Of a stretch of DNA of 64,000 nt, positions 1-64,000 are shown piece by piece (position 1 is the first letter of the stretch; the number at the start of each line of letters is the position of its first letter). The stretch lies in the IMG/VR virus record IMGVR_UViG_3300047300_001121, positions 1 to 64,000 of that record; one strand, 5' to 3'. The position numbers and the translations under genes were made by a program. Below the pieces are notes generated by a model. It was not told where the DNA came from, made no database searches, and saw only the letters and a list, made by a program, of their open reading frames with translations. Origin of the DNA: a virus.

Positions 1-2887
1 CTGTGACGCTGTACGTCGTGCCAACTGCCAGGCTTACGTTTGCCGCCAGGACGCCACCGCCGCCACCGCCACCGCTGTTACCACTGTTGCCGCCACCGCC
101 ACCGCCAGCCACAACCAAATAGGAAATGGTGTAGGTGGTCGGGATGCCAGTGCTTTGCGTTGTGCCGTCACCGAACGTGATGCTGTTGGTGAACACCGTC
201 CCGAACTTGAAGCTGGCGTCACCAAGGTTGTAGGCGCCGCTGGTGCTCGGGTAGATCTTCGCGGAATCCTGCCGGAGCCTCTCCGTTCCACTGAAGTGCC
301 AGTAGATGTTTCCGCCGGACAGTCGCATGCGAACCGATTCCGAGTACCCGCCGATGTATCGGTAACTCGCGAGGTGAAGCTCTCCAACGGCGTAGTTGCC
401 GCTGTCAAGGCTTGTCGATGTGATGTTGGTCGCATAGATGCGAGCCATCTCGTACGAGGTGCCGTTGGAGTTCTTTCCCTCCCACTCCATGCCACCGAGG
501 GAATTTGTCGTGGCAGTGCCCGTGGGCGTCATCGTCTTCTGGAATCGAAGCGATGACTCGTCCGTCAGCGTGGTCGAGGTGTTGACGGATTTGAACGCGT
601 CAACAACACCTGACTGCGTGACCTGAATCGTTCCGGTGTAGTTGCCGCCGCCAAGTCCGGCGACGTAGTTGGTGTAGTTGCTGGCGTCGAGGACCGTGTT
701 GCCTTTGAAAATCAGCGACGCGTTGGAGCGACGGGCGTCAAGAACGTTCGTCCAAGACACGGTTGCGCCAACAGTTCCAGACGGGGCCGCATAGACGATC
801 AGGCCGTCGTAGGCGTCCCAGCGAGAAACAATGTCGGCAAAGGCATACGTGTGGCTCCCGGACGTGGTGGTGTAGTTGACCCCGTAGCTGGCGCCCCCGT
901 AGTTGCCTCCAGAAAAACCAATTGCCAGTGAGCGAGGGTTGCCCGAGTTCATGACGCTGGAACCGGCGCCCCAAGTCACTGCACCGCTAAAAGACGCATT
1001 ACCAGAGCCGTCCACTCGCCCAACTTGGCCGCCTGCCCCGTTGCCGAAGAATGTGCCTTGATCCCCGCCGTACCAGTTCAGGTACACGCCACGACTCGCG
1101 TCAGAAGAGTCAAGGTGCAAGTTGCCGTTTGTTGTCGCAACAGAAGCCGTAGTGCTGTCACCCTGGAAGCCGTTGCCGCCAACGCGCAAAGAGTTGCTCC
1201 AGCCGCTATTGGGGCCAAAAGTGATGTAGGAATCACCGGGGAATGTCGGGCCATTGTGAGCGGCGAGAGCCGTCAGCGTGTACAGGCTCGAGATCGTTGC
1301 GGCATTAAGTACCGCATCAGCTCCACCCCCATGTGTGAACACACGGACCTTGACCGTGTATGAGTTTCCCGTGCTGACAATGTGGGAAATTGGGATCTTG
1401 TAGCAGGTGTTGGTCGCATCCCACGCGAACTCGCCAATGGCGATGTTTGCCCCGATGGTCCCCAGCACATCAACGACACGGGAACTGTTCAAAAAGATGT
1501 TGTTGGTCGGGTTTGTGCCAACCGCAAACACTTTGGTCAGCTTGCCGCCCGAATTCTGGTTGGAGTAGGTGCTGGTGATCTCGACCTCAATGTATCCCCA
1601 CATTGACAGGTTTCCGAGGCGGAGATCGACGGCGAGGTTTGCCGTACCGTTTGTGAAGTACGGCGTCTGAAGCAGCACCTCGCCGTGGTTGTCGGTGTTC
1701 TTGTACCCGGCGAGTTTCAACCAGCCGGTCATCGTGTCGCCGGATTTCAGAACATAGCGACCGTCGCCGTAGTTGGTGTAGTTGCTGGAGTCGAGAAGCT
1801 TTTTCCAAGAGCCCCACGTCGTTCCGCTACCGCTTCGCTGCCAGACGTTCCCGTTGTCAGTAAAACCAAGCTGGTGAGAAAGACCGCCAGTCCAGTCCGT
1901 TCCAGAGCCATACTGCCGGAACGTCATCTCGCCAAAATAGCCGCCGCCGTCGTTCAGGCCGTCCGTGCCGTTGGCCTTGAAGTCGAACATGACGCCCATG
2001 TCAATGGTCTGCGGCGTCGTGGCTGTACTGCGAGAATCGGTGACGCGCAAAGCGTACGCGGAACCGTTGATGTTGATACCCCAAGTGCCGGACGCGCCAG
2101 TGCCGGTCAGCGACGGGGAATAGCTGGTGTAGTTGCTCGCGTTGAGCGTCTGGTTTCCGTTCTCTTTGATCGCACCGGTGATGTTGGCCGAACCGGTGAC
2201 CTGGAGCTTGTCGGTGTTGTTGTCGGTGGCCGAGCCGATCAGGACGTTGCCGCTGGTGGCAAAGCGAACGGCTTCGGTCGAACCAAAGACAAAGACCCAT
2301 GGCAAGACCGTACCAGTGCCCAGCGATCCGGACACCAAACGCATGGTCCCGGATGCTGCGGTCAGTGTGCCAATGGATGAGTTCGCGGGGTCAGACGAGT
2401 TGAAGACCTGGAACTGCGCGTTGACAGCGGTGCCGCTGGGAATGAGGCCGAAGTAGGTGTTGGAGTTGGCGGTAGATGTCTGCACCAGGACGCGGTTTGC
2501 GTACGTCCCGTTGGTGAAGTCGCCGGTGATGCGGTTGCCGGTGCCGGTGAAGGACAGGTTGCCGGAGATGTTCTGCTGGGTGTCGAGCTTGATCTGGTTC
2601 AGCATCGCCTTGGTCAGGCGCAGCTCGACCTTGTCAGCAGCAGAGAAGGCGCGAGCCGTGGTGCCGTCCTGGCCGCGAACAACGGTGAAGGTGTCGGTGG
2701 TGCGCGCCGTGACCTTGACGATCTCGAGGTTGCCGGCGGTGTCGGCCAGGGTGACGTAGAAGTAGTCGCCAACACCCGGAGACGGGAACAGCGCACCCAA
2801 CCCAGCCGTCACAGAGAAGCTTGTCGCTGCGGCGGTGATTGTCGCCGATAGAGCAGCCTGTGCGTTGTTGGTGAATAAAACAGCCAT
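1..2887 (-). CDS. Tail fibre protein (3' end beyond left edge; not in ORF track)
   Basis: ATG at 2887 reads MAVLFTNNAQAALSATITAAATSFSV...YFYVTLADTAGNLEIVKVTART (fibre attachment-type N-terminus). The same frame is open at the left edge and ends in the Gly-rich segment YLVVAGGGGGGNSGNSGGGGGGG. Confidence 0.85.
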   Translation of the reverse strand, partial: MAVLFTNNAQAALSATITAAATSFSVTAGLGALFPSPGVGDYFYVTLADTAGNLEIVKVTARTTDTFTVVRGQDGTTARAFSAADKVELRLTKAMLNQIKLDTQQNISGNLSFTGTGNRITGDFTNGTYANRVLVQTSTANSNTYFGLIPSGTAVNAQFQVFNSSDPANSSIGTLTAASGTMRLVSGSLGTGTVLPWVFVFGSTEAVRFATSGNVLIGSATDNNTDKLQVTGSANITGAIKENGNQTLNASNYTSYSPSLTGTGASGTWGININGSAYALRVTDSRSTATTPQTIDMGVMFDFKANGTDGLNDGGGYFGEMTFRQYGSGTDWTGGLSHQLGFTDNGNVWQRSGSGTTWGSWKKLLDSSNYTNYGDGRYVLKSGDTMTGWLKLAGYKNTDNHGEVLLQTPYFTNGTANLAVDLRLGNLSMWGYIEVEITSTYSNQNSGGKLTKVFAVGTNPTNNIFLNSSRVVDVLGTIGANIAIGEFAWDATNTCYKIPISHIVSTGNSYTVKVRVFTHGGGADAVLNAATISSLYTLTALAAHNGPTFPGDSYITFGPNSGWSNSLRVGGNGFQGDSTTASVATTNGNLHLDSSDASRGVYLNWYGGDQGTFFGNGAGGQVGRVDGSGNASFSGAVTWGAGSSVMNSGNPRSLAIGFSGGNYGGASYGVNYTTTSGSHTYAFADIVSRWDAYDGLIVYAAPSGTVGATVSWTNVLDARRSNASLIFKGNTVLDASNYTNYVAGLGGGNYTGTIQVTQSGVVDAFKSVNTSTTLTDESSLRFQKTMTPTGTATTNSLGGMEWEGKNSNGTSYEMARIYATNITSTSLDSGNYAVGELHLASYRYIGGYSESVRMRLSGGNIYWHFSGTERLRQDSAKIYPSTSGAYNLGDASFKFGTVFTNSITFGDGTTQSTGIPTTYTISYLVVAGGGGGGNSGNSGGGGGGGVLAANVSLAVGTTYSVT
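665..2146. repeat. Three 27-bp repeats encoding L(D/N)(A/S)SNYT(N/S)Y linkers in the tail fibre
   Basis: 665-691 vs 1769-1795 match at 26/27; 2120-2146 matches the first copy at 23/27. Confidence 0.85.
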
Positions 2888-56082: not shown

Positions 56083-59000
56083 TCAGTCGACGCGCTCGAG
56101 CTCTTTCTTGACTGCGGCGCGGATCTCTTTCGGCGCGGTGGCGGCGACACGCTGAGCCTTGCTCTTGTTCGCTTCCTGCACGCGCTTGTTGATCTGGCCA
56201 GCATCGATGGAAATGCGGCTCTCTGGGTTGTTGCGGTTCCAGTCGGCGAGCTCTTGCTTGGCCTCTTCGATGAGGTCGGGCTTCTTCTCGATGCGGCCGC
56301 GGGCCCACTTGTCGGCGATCTCCGTCTCGCGCAGCTTGTTCTGTGTGATCAGGTTTTGCTGGGCGCCGGTTGCCTCCTGCACCTGGGCGACGGCCTTGGG
56401 TTGGAATCCAAGCGCCTTGGCAAACGCGTCGTACGCATCGGTGTCAACCACCTTGCGGCCCTTCTGGTCGCGGTAGTAGCCCATCGTGGCCATGTCGGCA
56501 GACTTGATCCAGTTCTGCGCAGCCACCGGTGCAACGGCCTCCGCCGCTTTGCCAAACTCGCCCTGGGCGATGCTTGCAACGCCGGTGCCGATGTTGGTGA
56601 AGAACGTGCCGGCCGGGCCCAGGATCTCGAGGTAGTCGCGGCCGTAGTCGCGCTTCTTCGTCAGCAGGCCGGTGCCTGGCACGAGGTTGCCCAGACCCAT
56701 GCGGCCGGACAAGTCGATCGGCACACCAGGCAAGCCGGACAGCCCGCTCATCACGAACTCGGCGCCAGCCTGGCCCAGGATCGAGGCGAAGAATTCCTTC
56801 TTGGCCTGCTTGCTGTCGAAACTGCGGCCCAGCACGCGCTGCATGAAGCCGTCGATCACGTCGTCCAGATCATCGGCGCCAGGCATGCCAGTCAGACCGG
56901 AGGCCAGGAACAGCACGGCGAGCGCCAGGCCGACGGCCTTCTTGCCCTCGGGCCCGTTGCCCCACATGCGCCGCAGGAACTCGACGTAGCCGATCGAATA
57001 CTGCTTGAACGTGAACAGGGTGCCACCCACCGCGCCACGCGCCCATGCCGGCTTGTTGCCCTTGTTGTAGACGCCCTGGGTCTCGGCAATCGCCTTCTGG
57101 GCAAATGCCATCGGATCAGCCATGCCCTGGTCGCGCGCCAGCTTGTAGGCAGCGATGAAGGTCACGCGGCGGTTGAACTGTTCGGCCGCCGAGAACACCT
57201 TGCCCCAGCCCAGCTGCAGCTTGGCCATGGCATTGTTGATCTTGGCCGCGGCGTCGCCTGCTTTGGTGCCGTCACCGGATTGCAGCTGGCCCTTGCCCTG
57301 CGCCTGAGCCATCAGCTGGTGAACTTCCTGCGGGCTCACGATGCCTTCGTCTTCGGCGCGCTTCAGAGCGGCCGCGAGCTCGTCGTCATTGCGGATGCCG
57401 CGGGATGCCATCTTCACGGCCTCGCCCATGCGCTTGGCTGCGCCGGCGGCGCCACCGAATTGCGACAGGTACGGCAGCGTCATGGTGAACGGCTGGGTCA
57501 AGTTGACCATGGCCGATGCGATCGATCCGCCGATGAACTGCGTGAACAGCATGCCGCGGATGGCCTGAGCCTCTTCGCGCGGGTTCTGCACGTATTCCAT
57601 TAGGCGCACAGCCGCGTCCTTGACGTCGCCGTCGCGCTGGTCAATGGCTTGCACAGAGCGGCCAATCTCGCCGGCATGCAGGTTGGTCGACGTCTGGCGG
57701 GCGTTGCTGTACACGAAGCCAGCGAGCACGCGGCCGACGTCTTCGCTGAAGCCGTTGATACCCTTGCGCTCAATCAGTCGCTTCATGGCCGAGCGGTTGG
57801 TCTTGGCCATCTTGAGGTACTGCTGGAACGCCTCTGACTTGGCGTCGACACCAGACTCTTCCAGGCCCAGCGATTCGCCGAACAGCGCCAGCGTCTCAGG
57901 CGTGACGCCACTGAAGAGCTTGTAGCTCTCCTGGCTCATCGTGCCCTGGGTGACGGTCGCGTCGGGGTACTGCTCTTGCATCTCGCGAGCCATCTTGTTG
58001 GCGTCGCGCTCGCTCTCGAACATCGAGAAGTAGAGCTGCTCACCATCTTTGCCAACGGCGTACACGGTGTACTCACCGAAGCGAGACAGCGGAGCGTAGC
58101 CGCGGGCCATCAAACCGATGGCCTGGCCAGCCTTTTCCTTGATGGCGCGCTTGCTGTCCTCGAGGACCTTGGCGCGCGTTGGCTGTTGCTCGATCAGCTG
58201 GTCGAGGTGAGCGATCATCGCGTTGAGGGCGCCGTCCAGATTCTTGGCGTCGAGCGCTTGCTGACGCACACCTTCGGAGTCGGTGCCCAGGTAGCGCAGC
58301 ATGTCAGAAACAGCGAGGTCGGACAGGCTCTTGTTGGTCGCGCGACGGAACTCGCGGTACAGGCCGATCTGGCGGTCGTTCAGACCGAAGAGCTCTTTGA
58401 GCTCGTCGTTGGTGAACACGACGCCAGCCTTGTCGACGTCTTCGGTCTCGACGATGTTGCCTTCGTCATCGCGCGTGTACTTCAGCGTGCCGCCGAAAAT
58501 CGGGTCACGCAGGGCCTTGACGTCTTCAGCCGACAGGGGCGTTTTGCCGATGTCCTTCCAGCTCTCGAGCTTGGGCAGGATGTTGGGCGCCAGGTCGGCG
58601 GCGCGGGTGGCGTAGACCGACACGTCGTTGATGAAGCGCTGCACGGCGTCGAACACGCGCTTGAACTGCGGGTGCTTCTGCGCCAGGTTGTACTGCGTGC
58701 CGATGGTGCGATCCCACCAGCTCAGCTTCTTGCTCGTCTTCAGCAGGTCGCCGAGGTTGTAGTTGGCCGTGACCTTCATTTGGCTCAGGTCATCGAAGTA
58801 GGGGCGGTCAGCGCTCTTGCGGATGTCCGGGTTGGTCGGGTCAAAATTGCCATTGTTGCCGATGGCGGATTTGATCTGCTCTGGGCGGAAGGCGATGTAG
58901 ACGTTGCGAACCTCGAATCCTTTTCCGCCACGAATGATGACGCCATCGGCACCAGCTTTCTCTGCAGCCTCGATGATCTTGTCGTGGTTGTAATCAAACC

Positions 59001-62000
59001 ACTTGTCCGGGGATCCAGTCGCCTTTCGCTCATACGGATTTTGCAGGCTCAGGTAAACCGGCATGATGTTGGCGCCACCATTGCCAAAGCGTGGATTCTC
59101 CTCGTCACCGAAGTTTGCGCCATCGGCCTGCTCTGCATAAACGCCAGCAGGAATTGGGCGGTTGGTGAAGAAGAACCCCTTATTTCCACCTCGGTAAACG
59201 TAGTTCCGCCCGGACCGCTCGCGATCGAAAACGGAAAAGTCAGACGCTGTGCCGTGATACACCACCAGAGGATTGCCATCAGCATCCACAACCTTCGAGT
59301 CGCCGAACCACTCCTTGAACTCGGGCGTGTCGGTCTGGCGATCGCGGCTGAACAGAGCAACGCCCTGGCCGACGGTCTCGCGCATCTTGTCGGTGACGTC
59401 GAAGCCGGACTGCTCGCCAGTCAGTCCGACGCCGGCGCTTCCGTCAACCTCTTTGATGACGGCGTCGCCGGTATATGCCAGCCGGTATTCGTTCGCTTCT
59501 TTGCGGCTATCGGTTCGGAACAGGCGTTCACCGCTGTCCTCGTCAAACACGACATACCTGCCGCCAACATCTTCGCCGCCAAACACAACGGAACTCAGCT
59601 TCTCGCCACCAAGCTTCGGCAGCAGCTTGCTGATGGCCTGCGGTACGATCTTGTCGTAGAAGGTCTTCATGCCTTCGCCGCCGACTCTGAGGCCCTCGCC
59701 GCTCAGTGTGCGGATGTCCTTCAGGTCTTCGTAATCAGGCGCGCCAGGCGTACCCTCGACTTGGCCTTCGCGTGAGTCCATCTTCTGGACGATCTCTTTG
59801 CCGACGATGTCCTCGAGCTCTGCGGCAGTGAAGTCGCCGTTCTTGATGTTGCTGCCGCCGGCCATCACGTTGATGTAGTAGCCTTTGGCGGTCGGCTCGT
59901 AGCTGATGGAGTCAACCTGCTTGCTCAGGTCATAGCGATCGGCAGACTGCTCGCCGTTGACGAATGCGACTTTGTCGTAGCCACCCTCGACAGCCATCAT
60001 CGCAATGCGCTTGAGTGCGAGGTTGAGCCAGCCTTCGGTCTTGGTGACGAAGGGAGCAAGCGGTACGCCCTGGTTGCTTCGGACAAGTTGCTCGGTGAGT
60101 TGCGATTTCTCGTCGGACAGCCTGTTCCACTCGGCTTGTAGCTCGGGCACATCTTCTGAATTTACCGTCTTCGCAATCTCGCGCAGACGCGCAGTGATGG
60201 CCTGCATACGCGCCTCGATACCGGGGCGGTCAACTTCCTGCTTGAACCCCTTCTTCTTGCCCTCTTGACCCCAGTCCGATTGCAGCTCTTCCACGAAGAG
60301 CACGCGCTTGCCGTCGGCATCGGTGCGGTCGTTGACGCGGATGTGGGCGAGGATGTTGGGCTCATCCCAGTGGCTGGACAAATAGCCGCCGTTCATGCGA
60401 TCGGCTTCGACAATCATGTTGTCGCCAGTCTCGCGCTCGCGGTCGGCGCGGAAGCGCTCAGCGCCTTCGCGGTCAAAAAAGCCTTCGCCTTCGATGTCAC
60501 CATTCTCGTTGACGACACGATAGTCGCCAGCCTTCTCGGGCAGCGTGATCAGCAGCTCACGGTAGTTTTCGCCGCCTGGCAGGGTGTAAGCGATGTACTT
60601 GGCTGGGCGCTCAGGCTCAGGCGCGTATTCCTCGTCGGAGTCTTCCGGAATCCACACGCCTTCGTTGGGACTCTGCGTCAGCGTCACTTCGGAGATCTTC
60701 ACGCCGCTGTCGTCAAGGTACGCGACCAGGTCGTCTTTGGTAAGCTTGTTCTTGCCCTGCAAATCCAAGAAGTCTTTGATACCGGACCACTCAATTTCGT
60801 CGGCTTTAATACCGAGCTTCGATGCGTTGGCGGTGAGCCATTGCTTCCACGCCGGCGCGGCCATGGTGGCCAGGCGCTGCGGCACTTGCTCGATGGCGCG
60901 TTGCAGTTGGCTGTAGAAAGCCGGGCGCGCCGGCGATTTCAGGACTTGTCCGGCTGCTCCGGCTCGAACTTCGCCGCCTGCATCCGATACACCTCGTGCG
61001 CCGTCTTGCCCGAGGTCGCCTCGGAGGCGCGAAGCTGCTCTTTCAAGTCCTTGACGTAGGGGTGATCCGAACCATGCTTCGCCTCCAGGCGCGCGATCTC
61101 CGCCTTCAGCGATTCGATCAATGTACTCACGATAGTTTTCCTTCCCGACAACAACAGTGTCGTAGTTCTGCATGGCCGCAAAGGCCACTCCATCCATGCC
61201 ACGAACTTCCGCAGCGATGTCGTTGAGCAGCTCACGCTTCTCCTGGATCGCACGCTCAATGCCGCCAGGTGCCAACAACTCGTCGCGCAGATCCTCGTCC
61301 CAGCGCATCGAGATCTCGGGCACGTATTGCAAACGCACACCGATAAACGATTCGCCCGTCACGCCTTTCGGGGTCACGCGGGGATCCACCGCCATTGTAA
61401 ATCCATCCTGCCCGCGAGACGTGAATTTCTCGAGAATCGGCATGGCAGTCGCGAGGTCTCGTTGCGACTTGAAGTAGATCTCGACGCCAGGGCGAGCATT
61501 GGCGCTGTCGTCCTTCGGGCCCAGCACCTTTGACACAAAGATGTCGTACTGATTGTTCTCTTCAGCAATGCGAGCGATCTCGGCCATCACCATGGACGGG
61601 TCATGCTGGCCTTTGGTCGCAGTCCATTCGGTGTCGAACGAGGCCTCGACCGTGCCGCCGTACAGACCCGAAGTGGGCATGACGCGGGCCGCCACAACGC
61701 TGTCGTCGCCAACCAGAATGGAGAGCACGCGGGCCTGGGCGACGGATGCCTCGTCGTTGTTGGGCACCTTCTCGCCTTGCTGGATGCTCCAGCCGGCCAG
61801 GTAGCGCTCAACAGGCGTGGCTTCGATGTTCTCTTCAAACGAGCCGCCTTCGCCGGTCTTGCTGGTCCAACCCTTTTGACCCCAGAGCTCCTTCTCGGCG
61901 AACCAGGCGATGGCTTGTAGATCTGGCGGGGTGACATTGATGCCGCGTTCCGCAAGCGCCCGGGAGACTTTGTCCATCACATCTGCGCCGAAGCCAAAGG

Positions 62001-64000
62001 CACCGGTCACGCGCGATCCGTCGGCATTCCACACGCCGGACACACCAGTCTCGGCGACGGGCGGGATGCGCGGCAAATCAGCGCCACGCACCATGTTCGC
62101 GGCGCGGCGTAGCATGCGGGCGGCCCAGACGTCGATGGTGGCCATGTTGGACTGGCCAATCAGGTTCAGCGCGAAGTTGCGGGCCTTGGGTGCCTGACCG
62201 GGCTCGATCACGCGCCACATGTCGACCAGCGCCTTCATGGCGTTGGTGGAGTTCATGCCGTACAGCTTGCCGCTGATCTGACGAATCTTGTCGGCGGCCG
62301 GGTACTTGCTGGCGTCCTTGCCTTCGTCGATGTAGGCGGAGAACTTGGCGAGCTGGTCGTTGAAGTCGCCGGCCATGAAGCGACGCATGACGTCGAGCGA
62401 GAATCGCCAGTTGGTGTCGACCGGCGTGTTGGGGGACGTTGCACCCAGCAAGTCAGCCAGCAGATCGCCGGAGCCGCCGTATTCGCGACGCAGCACTTCG
62501 GCGACGTTGCGATACCAGGTCTGGTGACCAATGATGATCTGAGCGTTCTTGTCGCCCTTGGCGGCGCGCTCGTAGATGTCAGAAACCAGGCCCTCGAACT
62601 TGTCGGCAACCTTGCCCAGCCACACGGTATCGGTCTTTGCCGGCGCGCGATTGCGGCCCGGGGGCACGTTGAACGCGTAGGGCAGGGCCTGGAACTTGGG
62701 CTTCTCGGATCCGGGGATCGGGTTGCCTTCGTCGTCCTGCTTGAGCTCGATGCCAACCACAGTCAATGGCGCCCAGCCTTGAGTGGTCGGGAATGCCTTC
62801 TTGATGCGGCGAGCCTCGTCGACAATAGCCTTGACCTGCTTCTTGCTCAGGTTGAGCTCTTTGGCGTCGGCGTCGATCGCTTCGATCTCTTTGACATCAA
62901 GGCGCGCAGCCTTGGCGCGCACGCGCTGCTCGCGGTCAATATCAAGCTTGTAGTCACGAGCCGTACTCTTGCGGACGTCAGCCTCATTGACCGAGAACAC
63001 GCCGTTGTTGAAATTGGCGGATTTCAGTTGCTCAGGATTGAAAGCAACGAAGACGTCTGACGGATCGTCGATGTACGAGCTGTAGCCAGGGCCTGAATCG
63101 ACGACGTTGAGAATGATCGCGCCGTCGGCGCCCCAGCGACGACCCTCGCGCACGACGTCATCGGTGGTCATGCCGATGCTGTCCTCTTCCTCGTAGCTTG
63201 ATGCGCGACCTGCTTCTACCTGGCGGTCGGCATCCTCCTCCGTGTACACGTAGTCACCGGTGGGCTCGCCGTTCTCATCGAGCATTCGGTACATCGGCTG
63301 TTCGCGCTCGCCATTCCACAGGGCGCCGTTGAAGTCTTCTTCGTTGGCGCTGCGGATGTTGACGAACAGGGCGTAGTAGCCCGAAACGTCTTCGCCGCTC
63401 GGCGCTTCATCGCCGTAGTTATCGAGCAGGTGCTCCTCGGCTTCCGCGCGGGTGTCATAGACGTTATCCATGTACCCGTCTTTCGAGTACACCTCGAACT
63501 TGCCATCGTCGGTCTCGAAGATGTCGTAGCCATCGTCGAGCAGCTCCTGCACCGTAGCTTTGTCGCGGAGCTCGATCTCGCCACCGCGACGGCTGTAGTA
63601 GGTCTGCGCCATAGCGAGATTCGGCGTCGTGAAGATGCCGAGGTCGCCACGCTCTTTGCCGCCGGGCGTCTTGAAGTAGTTGAAGCCGCCCTTGTCGGTG
63701 CCGTGGTAGACGACCATCGGCTCGCCGTTGGCAGTGACAACCTTCGACACGTCAAGGTTGGTTGCCCAAACGCCACCGTCCTTGTGTGCCTGCTCCCAGT
63801 CGCCGAACCACTGCTTGAAGCTGGGCGTGCGCACTTGCACCCACTGGCGCTCGCTGAGCATGGTGTCGGTGCCATCAGGCGCCTTCATCCATTGGTCTGT
63901 CCCTTTGTACTTGGCCTCGACTTCGGCGTATTCGCGCTTGGCGATTTCGACATCGCTTTCGCGCGCCGGGCTGAAGCGAATGGCGGAACCGATGCGCTCG
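56083..64000 (-). CDS. Giant polyvalent internal virion/ejection protein with C-terminal PLxRFG domain (5' end beyond right edge)
   Basis: Frame stays open past 63888 to the edge (ERIGSAIRFSPARESD...). Two VYHGT ART-like domains, a glycosylase-like domain, a SHW/EELQSDW domain and GYAPLSRFGEY. Confidence 0.9.
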   Translation of the reverse strand, partial: ERIGSAIRFSPARESDVEIAKREYAEVEAKYKGTDQWMKAPDGTDTMLSERQWVQVRTPSFKQWFGDWEQAHKDGGVWATNLDVSKVVTANGEPMVVYHGTDKGGFNYFKTPGGKERGDLGIFTTPNLAMAQTYYSRRGGEIELRDKATVQELLDDGYDIFETDDGKFEVYSKDGYMDNVYDTRAEAEEHLLDNYGDEAPSGEDVSGYYALFVNIRSANEEDFNGALWNGEREQPMYRMLDENGEPTGDYVYTEEDADRQVEAGRASSYEEEDSIGMTTDDVVREGRRWGADGAIILNVVDSGPGYSSYIDDPSDVFVAFNPEQLKSANFNNGVFSVNEADVRKSTARDYKLDIDREQRVRAKAARLDVKEIEAIDADAKELNLSKKQVKAIVDEARRIKKAFPTTQGWAPLTVVGIELKQDDEGNPIPGSEKPKFQALPYAFNVPPGRNRAPAKTDTVWLGKVADKFEGLVSDIYERAAKGDKNAQIIIGHQTWYRNVAEVLRREYGGSGDLLADLLGATSPNTPVDTNWRFSLDVMRRFMAGDFNDQLAKFSAYIDEGKDASKYPAADKIRQISGKLYGMNSTNAMKALVDMWRVIEPGQAPKARNFALNLIGQSNMATIDVWAARMLRRAANMVRGADLPRIPPVAETGVSGVWNADGSRVTGAFGFGADVMDKVSRALAERGINVTPPDLQAIAWFAEKELWGQKGWTSKTGEGGSFEENIEATPVERYLAGWSIQQGEKVPNNDEASVAQARVLSILVGDDSVVAARVMPTSGLYGGTVEASFDTEWTATKGQHDPSMVMAEIARIAEENNQYDIFVSKVLGPKDDSANARPGVEIYFKSQRDLATAMPILEKFTSRGQDGFTMAVDPRVTPKGVTGESFIGVRLQYVPEISMRWDEDLRDELLAPGGIERAIQEKRELLNDIAAEVRGMDGVAFAAMQNYDTVVVGKENYREYIDRIAEGGDRAPGGEAWFGSPLRQGLERAASRLRGDLGQDGARGVSDAGGEVRAGAAGQVLKSPARPAFYSQLQRAIEQVPQRLATMAAPAWKQWLTANASKLGIKADEIEWSGIKDFLDLQGKNKLTKDDLVAYLDDSGVKISEVTLTQSPNEGVWIPEDSDEEYAPEPERPAKYIAYTLPGGENYRELLITLPEKAGDYRVVNENGDIEGEGFFDREGAERFRADRERETGDNMIVEADRMNGGYLSSHWDEPNILAHIRVNDRTDADGKRVLFVEELQSDWGQEGKKKGFKQEVDRPGIEARMQAITARLREIAKTVNSEDVPELQAEWNRLSDEKSQLTEQLVRSNQGVPLAPFVTKTEGWLNLALKRIAMMAVEGGYDKVAFVNGEQSADRYDLSKQVDSISYEPTAKGYYINVMAGGSNIKNGDFTAAELEDIVGKEIVQKMDSREGQVEGTPGAPDYEDLKDIRTLSGEGLRVGGEGMKTFYDKIVPQAISKLLPKLGGEKLSSVVFGGEDVGGRYVVFDEDSGERLFRTDSRKEANEYRLAYTGDAVIKEVDGSAGVGLTGEQSGFDVTDKMRETVGQGVALFSRDRQTDTPEFKEWFGDSKVVDADGNPLVVYHGTASDFSVFDRERSGRNYVYRGGNKGFFFTNRPIPAGVYAEQADGANFGDEENPRFGNGGANIMPVYLSLQNPYERKATGSPDKWFDYNHDKIIEAAEKAGADGVIIRGGKGFEVRNVYIAFRPEQIKSAIGNNGNFDPTNPDIRKSADRPYFDDLSQMKVTANYNLGDLLKTSKKLSWWDRTIGTQYNLAQKHPQFKRVFDAVQRFINDVSVYATRAADLAPNILPKLESWKDIGKTPLSAEDVKALRDPIFGGTLKYTRDDEGNIVETEDVDKAGVVFTNDELKELFGLNDRQIGLYREFRRATNKSLSDLAVSDMLRYLGTDSEGVRQQALDAKNLDGALNAMIAHLDQLIEQQPTRAKVLEDSKRAIKEKAGQAIGLMARGYAPLSRFGEYTVYAVGKDGEQLYFSMFESERDANKMAREMQEQYPDATVTQGTMSQESYKLFSGVTPETLALFGESLGLEESGVDAKSEAFQQYLKMAKTNRSAMKRLIERKGINGFSEDVGRVLAGFVYSNARQTSTNLHAGEIGRSVQAIDQRDGDVKDAAVRLMEYVQNPREEAQAIRGMLFTQFIGGSIASAMVNLTQPFTMTLPYLSQFGGAAGAAKRMGEAVKMASRGIRNDDELAAALKRAEDEGIVSPQEVHQLMAQAQGKGQLQSGDGTKAGDAAAKINNAMAKLQLGWGKVFSAAEQFNRRVTFIAAYKLARDQGMADPMAFAQKAIAETQGVYNKGNKPAWARGAVGGTLFTFKQYSIGYVEFLRRMWGNGPEGKKAVGLALAVLFLASGLTGMPGADDLDDVIDGFMQRVLGRSFDSKQAKKEFFASILGQAGAEFVMSGLSGLPGVPIDLSGRMGLGNLVPGTGLLTKKRDYGRDYLEILGPAGTFFTNIGTGVASIAQGEFGKAAEAVAPVAAQNWIKSADMATMGYYRDQKGRKVVDTDAYDAFAKALGFQPKAVAQVQEATGAQQNLITQNKLRETEIADKWARGRIEKKPDLIEEAKQELADWNRNNPESRISIDAGQINKRVQEANKSKAQRVAATAPKEIRAAVKKELERVD
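60939..61130 (-). CDS. Nested out-of-frame 63-aa helical protein inside the polyvalent gene
   Basis: GGAAGGA RBS, GTG start, MSTLIESLKAEIARLEAKHGSDHPYVKDLKEQLRAS..., genome-typical codons. Confidence 0.65.
   Translation of the reverse strand: MSTLIESLKAEIARLEAKHGSDHPYVKDLKEQLRASEATSGKTAHEVYRMQAAKFEPEQPDKS

Follow-up and report, generated by a model that had tools for sequence, protein, structure and literature searches.

The window, a stretch of 64,000 nucleotides of viral DNA, ends within a giant gene read on the minus strand: its open reading frame (ORF) runs from 56083 to 63888 and further, and the full protein (P0003) has 4095 amino acids. Wholly inside this 56083-63888+ frame, and therefore embedded on the same strand but in another frame (+1), lies a second ORF at 61130-60939 with a GTG start, 63 codons and a TGA stop. 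The features of the locus are as follows.

56083-64000, minus strand: host gene for a giant, ejection-type polyvalent virion protein, with the 5' end past the window (ORF, domains and virion-module synteny)
62110-62586, minus strand: DUF7178 (PF23802) region, N-terminal to the ferredoxin-like domain and found in split relatives too (domain searches)
61024-61788, minus strand: upstream domain, a tandem ferredoxin-like fold, the 3' end of which carries the Shine-Dalgarno (SD) sequence and start of the small gene and overlaps that gene (AF2)
61139-61145, minus strand: SD sequence GGAAGGA, 8 nt before the GTG, spelled by the main-frame codons for G-K-E (sequence and codon enrichment)
60939-61130, minus strand: nested small gene, the dual-coding zone (sequence, orthologous ORFs, selection counts and AF2)
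61066-61074, minus strand: main-frame W-F-G, invariant in the window's clade, which forces the nested codons NNT-GGT-TCG (comparison of fused clade-1 loci)
60680-60918 (end approximate), minus strand: start of the next module (F-Y-S-Q-L-x-R-A-I...), where typical main-frame codon usage resumes (sequence and codon usage)

Synteny places the giant gene in the virion module, and P0003 combines SLT, InPase, two ART-PolyVal stretches and DUF7178, the domain content of a polyvalent protein. The domain encoded just upstream of the nested ORF was modelled by AF2 as beta-alpha-beta-beta-alpha-beta repeats (pLDDT 71). PDB profile, PHROGs, Foldseek and VIA-align searches with this domain returned nothing specific, only generic ferredoxin-like matches (best Z 7.4).

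An earlier sequence-only reading of this DNA had described the nested frame, its SD sequence GGAAGGA, the GTG at 61130 and the 63 codons, and all of these sequence statements check out. The TGA (60941-60939) falls where the main frame encodes V-L-K, the first residues of the junction motif VLKSPAR, a domain boundary as had been proposed. The switch in codon composition between the frames is also real: over approximately 61140-60950, GC3 falls from ~0.75 to ~0.40 in the main frame and rises to 0.8-0.9 in the +1 frame (genome-typical value 0.79). Two properties of the region could nonetheless mislead: where the encoded protein is rich in G/A/R, its first codon positions look like a high GC3 once read in the +1 frame, and off-frame ORFs are long at 60% GC. 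The ORF might then not be a gene at all: conservation of the main frame, or an element acting at the nucleotide level, could have left it as a by-product, or it could be an artefact caused by a compensated double frameshift or by faulty assembly.

Comparison with relatives argues against this. Among 88 complete, distinct and related loci (GC content 35-69%), a recognisable small ORF with SD and start at the homologous site was found in all but one or two. In clade 1, to which the window belongs, the SD, the homologous start and an open +1 frame were present in 20/20 loci; the stop-freeness of the +1 frame amounts to a summed log10 P of -21 over these 20 loci, a value that overstates independence because the loci are related. 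In loci of 38-49% GC the +1 frame is open in the overlap, yet many stops interrupt it in the flanks. A start and an open +1 frame are the rule in the related loci, contrary to the nested-frame stops that the sequence-only reading had set against its own proposal, and the ORF is kept even at 35-49% GC. Approximately 50 small database proteins align from residue 1 of the nested protein (phmmer). GTG is the start codon of the window's copy only, and ATG stands at the homologous site in every relative.

Both signals fall where the upstream protein has its final conserved residues (G-K-E-N-Y-D-E-Y in clade 1, F-R-x-D-Y-D-E-Y in clade 2), and both are selected against codon bias. The Lys codon within the SD is AAG in 19/20 clade-1 loci (13.1 expected), and the Arg at the equivalent position in clade 2 is encoded by AGG or AGA in 53/54 loci, compared with a background use of 31%. 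Likewise, T-ending codons for Tyr, Asp or Asn create the nested ATG even where such codons make up 9-24% of usage. Judged by the orthologous ORF, SD and start kept across related loci, the ORF at 61130-60939 is a real and conserved gene with start signals of its own rather than a chance ORF, as had been suspected of this second frame of the giant gene.

The two readings of the overlap evolve very differently. Given an identical main-frame residue, the codon was also identical at a frequency of 0.796 in the overlap versus 0.386 upstream in the window's clade (maximum of any upstream window 0.433), and of 0.899 versus 0.424 in clade 2. Main-frame synonymous sites are thus frozen in the overlap, which points to purifying selection on the embedded frame. 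In agreement, nested-frame dNN/dNS was 0.55 in clade 1 and 0.15 in clade 2 (control windows 0.7-2.6), and main-frame dNN/dSN in the overlap was 1.10 and 1.44, respectively, compared with 0.02-0.15 upstream; these ratios are rough, as they come from pairwise counts between related sequences under a simplified OLGenie-like scheme. A codon-model score rose in the +1 frame and fell in the main frame, in the overlap only, and the heptad pattern and turn motif of the nested peptide are conserved across the two clades. By these substitution counts, the nested amino-acid sequence is under purifying selection, and the earlier suggestion that selection acts mainly on the nested frame is borne out. The main-frame reading over the small gene evolves like a passenger but, going by stop-codon statistics, is actively kept stop-free: it is open in 80/88 loci, with a median probability of openness of 0.023, calculated given the sequence of the small protein and local codon usage.

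A passenger is not the same as the linker that this main-frame stretch had been taken for. A W-F-G-x-P-x-R...E-R-A..R-L segment is conserved in ~98/119 giant homologues, and part of the stretch is modelled as helix by AF2, so the description as a linker does not hold. Moreover, these ~98 giant homologues contain the main-frame peptide and none of them has the nested peptide in frame, which rules out a compensated double frameshift or assembly error. With the main frame being the less constrained of the two in the overlap, the ORF being open even in the low-GC loci and its SD and start selected against codon usage, it is hardly credible that the ORF is not a gene.

Another way to use the nested frame would be programmed +1 ribosomal frameshifting, yielding a truncated giant protein that ends in the nested peptide. 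The two frames share a strand and differ by +1, and an SD-like element precedes the frame change, as it does at the prfB shift site. However, ATG or GTG occupies one exact position in all loci, many loci have +1-frame stops 4-6 codons before that start, no conserved slippery or stop-codon shift site is present, and in one relative (L022) the small gene is almost free-standing. We therefore rejected frameshifting, which is extremely improbable given the strictly kept start, the stops just upstream of it and the arrangement in L022.

L022 is one end of a series found within a single family. The 88 loci comprise a minimal overlap in 1, a partial overlap in 7, nesting in the 3' tail of the upstream gene in 40 and read-through fusion in 40; in L022 the stop of the upstream gene comes 9 codons after the start of the small one. 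This graded series of architectures, together with main-frame dNN/dSN values of 1.1-1.4, points to the reverse of the direction of overprinting assumed in the sequence-only reading. The small gene is probably the older one and the giant gene's reading a later overprint created by 3' extension of the upstream gene, an order drawn from parsimony and codon composition rather than from a rooted tree. The upstream ejection-protein gene would have extended its 3' end over the small gene by 9, ~30, ~50 and ~70 codons in different lineages, and in some lineages may have read through into the next gene, giving rise to giant polyvalent proteins like that of the window. Extension of a gene at its 3' end through stop-codon loss creates gene overlaps, and the protein sequence read from the new frames tends to be disordered and of low complexity. 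The main-frame reading fits this pattern in being G/R/A/S/P-rich, near-neutral and of different length between lineages. It departs from it in that a whole small gene was engulfed, two large genes were fused and openness was then kept by selection.

The genomic setting assigns the small gene to a module. In split relatives it lies between the gene for a ~1000-aa protein with the same upstream domain and that for an internal virion protein (phrog_6651), and this set is flanked by tail and fibre genes. When the upstream domain was used as the query, 117 of the 122 loci found carried the small gene; the proposal that it moves with its neighbouring domain thus holds for the domain encoded just upstream. 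Blastn and tblastn searches confined to 50,697 cultured-phage records gave no match, whether the query was the region, the small protein or either of two versions of the upstream domain. The small gene is part of the module for ejection (internal virion) proteins in uncultured podovirus-like phages, which form a large group.

Its product is predicted to be a three-helix protein, modelled by AF2 with a pLDDT of 88 from a 49-sequence alignment (helices at residues 4-19, 24-39 and 44-51). The 63-aa protein has no Cys and no hydrophobic signal. Nothing above cut-offs was retrieved from Pfam, PHROGs, NCBIfam or PDB sequences, no significant fold match came from Foldseek or VIA-align (best Z 5.4, generic helical hairpins), and Atlas yielded only unnamed clusters. 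The basic form has ~55-65 codons, and other loci add a variable C-terminal tail that is absent in the window; the class of tail varies together with the downstream module. Long forms that continue in frame end in real domains, e.g. DUF3293 (E 2.7e-22), and in two of them (P0190 and P0192) the N-module alone matched viral contigs.

These properties bear on whether the peptide itself matters. What counts could instead be the translation of the nested ORF, acting as a device for coupling or pausing by which the flow of ribosomes into the downstream part of the operon or giant gene is tuned. Consistent with such a device, no sigma-70-like promoter or intrinsic terminator was found within 60700-61700, and in clade 2 the upstream stop overlaps the start of the next gene (a TAATG-type junction) just after the small gene. 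Nevertheless, we consider it very unlikely: the peptide itself is under purifying selection (dNN/dNS 0.15-0.55), its heptad pattern and turn motif are shared by two clades, its AF2 fold is confident and its in-frame long forms bear real domains.

What the protein does is suggested by its company. Internal initiation on the giant mRNA would release a free three-helix protein, which most likely acts as a non-covalent partner of the ferredoxin-like domain, either as an assembly adaptor or chaperone or as a minor ejectosome subunit; this role is read from gene linkage only. The variable C-terminal tail, where present, would travel with the downstream module. Overall, we think it quite likely that the locus holds an independently translated small gene of the ejection module, older than the giant reading that overprints it, whose product probably serves as a non-covalent partner.

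The sequence-only reading had favoured a different role, namely that of a built-in immunity protein or inhibitor. Within the producing cell it would neutralise a toxic enzymatic domain next to it, so that a single gene would encode an effector-immunity pair. Strict co-inheritance with the upstream domain, co-variation of the tail classes with the downstream module and a host protein that is a polyvalent effector carrier (ART, SLT, InPase) would all be compatible with this. In addition, the upstream domain matches a phage SAM lyase at Z 6.4, a score tied among many unrelated ferredoxin-like folds. Yet searches with the co-inherited domain, a tandem ferredoxin-like fold, recognised no catalytic family and gave no specific fold match, split phages have the small gene between ordinary ejection-protein genes that lack effector domains, and the basic form is a mere ~55 aa with no tail. 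The effector-immunity pair therefore found no support, and we regard it as unlikely.

A more specific version of the partner role may be put forward tentatively, as possible rather than probable: the small protein could be a docking adaptor, in which the constant three-helix N-module binds the ferredoxin-like domain and a swappable C-terminal part (a short motif tied to the downstream module or, in long forms, a whole domain such as DUF3293) recruits or holds a second component, loading cargo into the virion non-covalently, with giant polyvalent genes growing by reading through the genes of their small partners and engulfing them. If so, non-covalent loading of cargo would parallel the covalent fusions of polyvalent proteins, and a hidden layer of out-of-frame partners might be expected in many giant polyvalent genes.

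Nested genes of this kind have precedents. The very small gene comS has its own start and lies out of frame inside the giant multi-module gene srfAB of Bacillus subtilis, on the same transcript; its product is a peptide that regulates bacterial competence, and the gene is known only from a narrow taxon. The nested gene described here resembles comS in its own start and its out-of-frame position inside a giant gene. Unlike comS, it encodes a predicted three-helix protein, occurs in ~90 diverse phage loci and also exists in a nearly free-standing form. Another parallel is lambda Rz/Rz1, where a larger phage gene contains, entirely within its +1 frame and on the same strand, a small gene that has an SD and start of its own. 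Relatives show embedded, overlapped and near-separated arrangements, and the embedded gene is routinely missed by automated annotation (Kongari et al., 2018, PMC6139136). An Rz1-like o-spanin was rejected as an identity for the nested protein, as the lipoprotein signal and lipobox Cys are absent and the context is a virion module with no lysis cassette. Furthermore, no single spanin family spans the embedded and other architectures (PMC6139136), whereas one family here shows the whole series plus read-through fusion into a giant gene, and it is the embedded gene that is constrained and the host reading that is the passenger.

The host gene itself is typical of polyvalent proteins in its many effector-like domains and its location in a virion module (Iyer et al., 2017, PMC5512222). 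The founding description of these proteins makes no mention of overlapping reading frames or frameshifts and treats inter-domain stretches as linkers (PMC5512222), and the literature searched yielded no account of genes that overlap within those for polyvalent or ejection proteins. Here, one inter-domain stretch proves to be an independent gene read a second time. Some of the stretches taken for 'linkers' in polyvalent proteins would thus be second readings of other genes, which alters how their conservation, composition and module boundaries are interpreted. The series from nearly separate through overlapped and embedded to engulfed, all within one family and unusually complete, would show how gene overlap can emerge in step with a giant polyvalent protein. 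The locus also brings a small-protein family, widespread yet unannotated, into the ejection module of abundant uncultured podovirus-like phages of freshwater and marine environments, one overlooked by gene callers that forbid nested genes. The two-frame system is directly testable, in that each frame can be disabled by changes that leave the protein of the other unaltered.

The imprint of the main frame on the nested gene can be seen at one site. All 19 fused clade-1 loci have the nested codons NNT GGT followed by TCG or TTG beneath the main-frame W-F-G, whatever their GC content, and the unfused relative L021 has CAC GGC in place of NNT GGT. Over the window's clade, the main-frame reading has gained a few fixed residues (W-F-G..P).

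Comparative evidence argues strongly that the small gene within the giant polyvalent virion protein gene is real, and it is an embedded overlapping gene, laid out as follows.

Nested open reading frame of the window
61130 to 60939, minus strand: GTG start at 61130, 63 codons, TGA stop at 60941-60939, in the +1 frame of the giant gene

A GGAAGGA sequence lies 8 nt 5' of the GTG, and the +1 frame ahead of the GTG is Cys/Arg-rich off-frame sequence. Over about 61140-60950 the GC3 of the main frame falls from ~0.75 to ~0.40 and that of the +1 frame climbs to 0.8-0.9 (gene-wide value 0.79). The ORF, GTG, SD and switch in codon usage described in a sequence-only reading were thus correct in every detail, as judged from the sequence and GC3 by frame. 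Its interpretation, an overprinted gene in a linker encoding a partner or immunity protein for an adjacent enzymatic domain, held in part: the small gene is genuine, with selection acting mainly on its frame, but the linker is not a free one. Of 119 giant homologues, ~98 have the main-frame peptide over the overlap, 40-77% identical and with a W-F-G-x-P-x-R...E-R-A..R-L segment. AF2 builds part of this segment into the upstream domain as a helix, and the stretch therefore cannot be regarded as free linker. A compensated double frameshift or assembly error was ruled out, since those ~98 homologues carry the main-frame peptide and never have the nested peptide in frame.

The giant ORF runs on the minus strand from past the window end down to 56083, in a virion module with tail fibre, internal virion protein and virion structural protein genes as neighbours and an integrase downstream. 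It extends ~4.4 kb past the window (window 63889-64000 and 1-4370 of L046, minus strand). The database copy of the protein has 4095 aa and comes from an 81,388-base virus record of a freshwater metagenome. Its Pfam domains are SLT, InPase, two ART-PolyVal stretches and DUF7178, a set that makes it a polyvalent protein as Iyer et al. 2017 (PMC5512222) use the term; the SLT lytic transglycosylase is N-terminal, and there is a weak OGG-like match besides the InPase domain.

The small gene is conserved well beyond the window. With the 63-aa product as query, phmmer returned 58 matches among 1.84 billion representatives; ~50 of these are small proteins (57-201 aa) that align first residue to first residue, with 40-79% identity. 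SD, start and ORF were all kept in a first set of 20 distinct related loci (GC 38-69%, main-frame identity 42-68%): in 20 of 20 the start is at the homologous site, made by main-frame xAT-Gxx in Y-D-E-Y, the SD is formed by the main-frame G-K-E codons GGN-AAG-GAR, and the +1 frame is open for 55-107 codons encoding the same helical pattern. Loci of low GC have +1-frame stops 4-6 codons ahead of the nested start. Searching again with more distant forms of the upstream domain gave 134 viral relatives, and the 80 that were fetched bear the same small ORF. Overall, 117 of 122 loci match the small-gene HMM; of the other five, two are truncated, two have a recognisable sub-threshold copy and one (L041) has an unrelated ORF. 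The latter (L041:2100-2520, plus strand; contig Ga0310344_10001000) is a +1-frame ORF of ~84 codons at the same SD-ATG site (GGAAAGGAGGAATACAATT-ATG), after the same upstream domain, with the upstream gene stopping ~30 codons later. In this slot the small-protein family may have given way to another small gene.

Both readings leave a mark on the DNA. Among clade 1 pairs (the window's clade), a shared main-frame residue is given by the same codon in 79.6% of cases in the overlap vs 38.6% upstream, where the highest figure in any 47-codon window is 43.3%; main-frame third positions are identical at 0.64 vs 0.35. In clade 2 (56 loci) the same-codon figures are 89.9% and 42.4%. Selection on the nested frame, suspected earlier from codon usage, was confirmed by a simplified OLGenie-like count (unambiguous single differences, all pairs): nested-frame dNN/dNS is 0.55 in clade 1 and 0.15 in clade 2 (control windows 0.7-2.6), and main-frame dNN/dSN is 1.10 and 1.44 (upstream 0.02-0.15). 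It is thus the small-gene peptide that is conserved, and the main-frame reading across it is, on average, a passenger. Codon models likewise score the +1 frame as coding-like only in the overlap, where the main frame loses its coding score, an effect strongest in high-GC genomes. The translation signals of the nested gene are also selected against codon bias: the G-K-E Lys is AAG in 19 of 20 loci (13.1 expected), the Arg of clade 2 F-R-x-D-Y is AGG or AGA in 53 of 54 (31% background), and the T-ending codon that makes the ATG is kept even where such codons account for only 9-24% of usage. Over main-frame W-F-G, the nested codons are NNT-GGT-TCG or TTG in all 19 fused clade 1 loci, although H, Y, F, S and R all occur as the first of these nested residues, and the unfused relative L021 has CAC-GGC. 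When each small gene was recoded synonymously in simulations using local codon usage, the median probability of an open main frame was 0.023 (window, 0.036), yet 80 of 88 distinct loci actually keep it open along the entire small gene, and therefore both readings are under selection. The small gene is selected for its sequence and the main frame for continuity and a few residues.

The relationship between the two genes varies among the 88 complete distinct loci.

Architectures of complete distinct loci
Minimal overlap, 1 locus (L022): upstream gene ends 9 codons past the start of the small gene, which is separate from the next gene
Partial overlap, 7 loci: upstream gene terminates within the small gene, about 28-60 codons from its start
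Fully nested in the 3' tail, 40 loci: upstream gene passes the small start by about 65-118 codons and the small stop by about 10-40
Fused onward, 40 loci: the window among them

In the split form, a phrog_376 tail protein is followed by a ~1000-aa DUF7178 and ferredoxin-like protein, the small gene, a ~1000-aa internal virion protein (phrog_6651) and fibre genes, which is a podovirus-type ejection-protein module. In locus L044 (G001:C17:9000-27637), 177-aa and 601-aa proteins lie between the phrog_376 and DUF7178 proteins. Its contig carries the near free-standing form and has the podovirus-type genes phrog_376, phrog_6651 and fibres; the record is titled a Nitrosopumilus MAG, and the contig resembles viral or proviral DNA that was binned with an archaeal MAG. 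The 3'-tail extension of fully nested loci is G/R/A/S/P-rich and in most has its stop at the start of the next gene. Judging from frame translations, in the clade with the fully nested form (L048-L090, about 2760-2830, plus strand) the upstream stop adjoins or overlaps the ATG of the gene that follows (M-A-I-x-P-L-x-Q-R-L...). Such a junction would couple the two large ejection-protein genes on either side of the small one, which may explain why the extension stays open.

Given the architecture series, the passenger-like evolution of the main frame and its atypical codon usage, the simplest reading is that, of the two, the small gene is older. The upstream gene would have lengthened across it and, in some lineages, become joined to what comes next, helping to build giant polyvalent proteins. 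The case is of interest because the embedded gene is, by this inferred direction, the older and constrained reading, and because the giant polyvalent gene that hosts it apparently arose by read-through of the small gene.

A bacterial analogue is comS inside srfAB, a tiny gene within a giant modular gene, and lambda Rz1 in Rz shares the embedded architecture. The small protein is not a spanin, as it lacks a lipobox and its gene lies outside any lysis cassette; moreover, no spanin family spans embedded and other architectures (PMC6139136), whereas the small-gene family spans all of them and fusion as well. The founding paper on polyvalent proteins is silent on overlapping frames (PMC5512222), and our full-text literature searches returned no report of overlapping genes in polyvalent or ejection protein genes.

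As for function, the small gene always follows the DUF7178/ferredoxin-like domain. There is no sigma-70-like promoter or intrinsic terminator near it (60700-61700 of the window), so it would be translated, if at all, from the same mRNA as that domain. AF2 (49-sequence alignment) gave a pLDDT of 88, with 93-98 over the first 40 residues, and helices at 4-19, 24-39 and 44-51; the conserved pattern is L..L...I..LE..-G-x-D-x-P-x-V..L[KR].Q[IL].A, then G-K...-[EQ]-[VL]-[YF]. The window's copy lacks Cys and hydrophobic segments and is about neutral in charge, and searches of Pfam, PHROG, NCBIfam, PDB sequences and folds gave no significant match. If the gene is real, our best guess, a tentative one, is a small non-covalent partner in the ejection module (an assembly adaptor or chaperone, or a minor ejectosome component), whose constant N-module would pair with the upstream domain and whose variable C-terminal part would pair with whatever follows. 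An inhibitor or immunity protein is possible but less likely. An effector beside its immunity protein is not established, because the upstream domain, a tandem ferredoxin-like fold, gives generic matches only (best Z 7.4). Among many unrelated ferredoxin-like folds, this domain (61024-61788, minus strand) matches phage SAM lyase 6zm9 at a tied Z of 6.4 over 101 aligned residues and SAM-AMP lyase at a Foldseek E of 0.047. These matches speak neither for nor against a SAM-lyase-like nature of the domain.

Many clade 1 members have C-terminal tails with recurrent motifs (among them D-L-x-N-L-P-x-D-P, R-E-Q-F-x-T-Q-E-E-F and E-E-D-G-I), and the class of tail varies together with the downstream module: 6 of 6 loci with the first motif have a G-x-H-Y-G-K/Y-F-Y-I-P module and 3 of 3 with the second have a Y-A-K-V-D...R-I-A module, while tail-less forms precede other modules (an ART domain in at least three). 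In the D-L-x-N-L-P-x-D-P tail, the one class compared, the nested reading looks better conserved by eye than the main frame. The window copy has no tail and finishes right at the junction motif, its stop codon lying within main-frame V-L-K-S-P-A-R (window 60925-60945); in relatives, a K/R-F/Y-S-L-R-P version of the junction overlaps the D-L-x-N-L-P-x-D-P motif. The N-module also occurs in frame in longer proteins, joined in one of them to DUF3293 (PF11697; E 2.7e-22) or, in at least five clusters, to a ~200-aa domain without assigned family. The long forms are the database proteins P0190-P0198, some with other globular-looking sequence after the N-module, and one is named 'sRNA-binding protein' by JGI.
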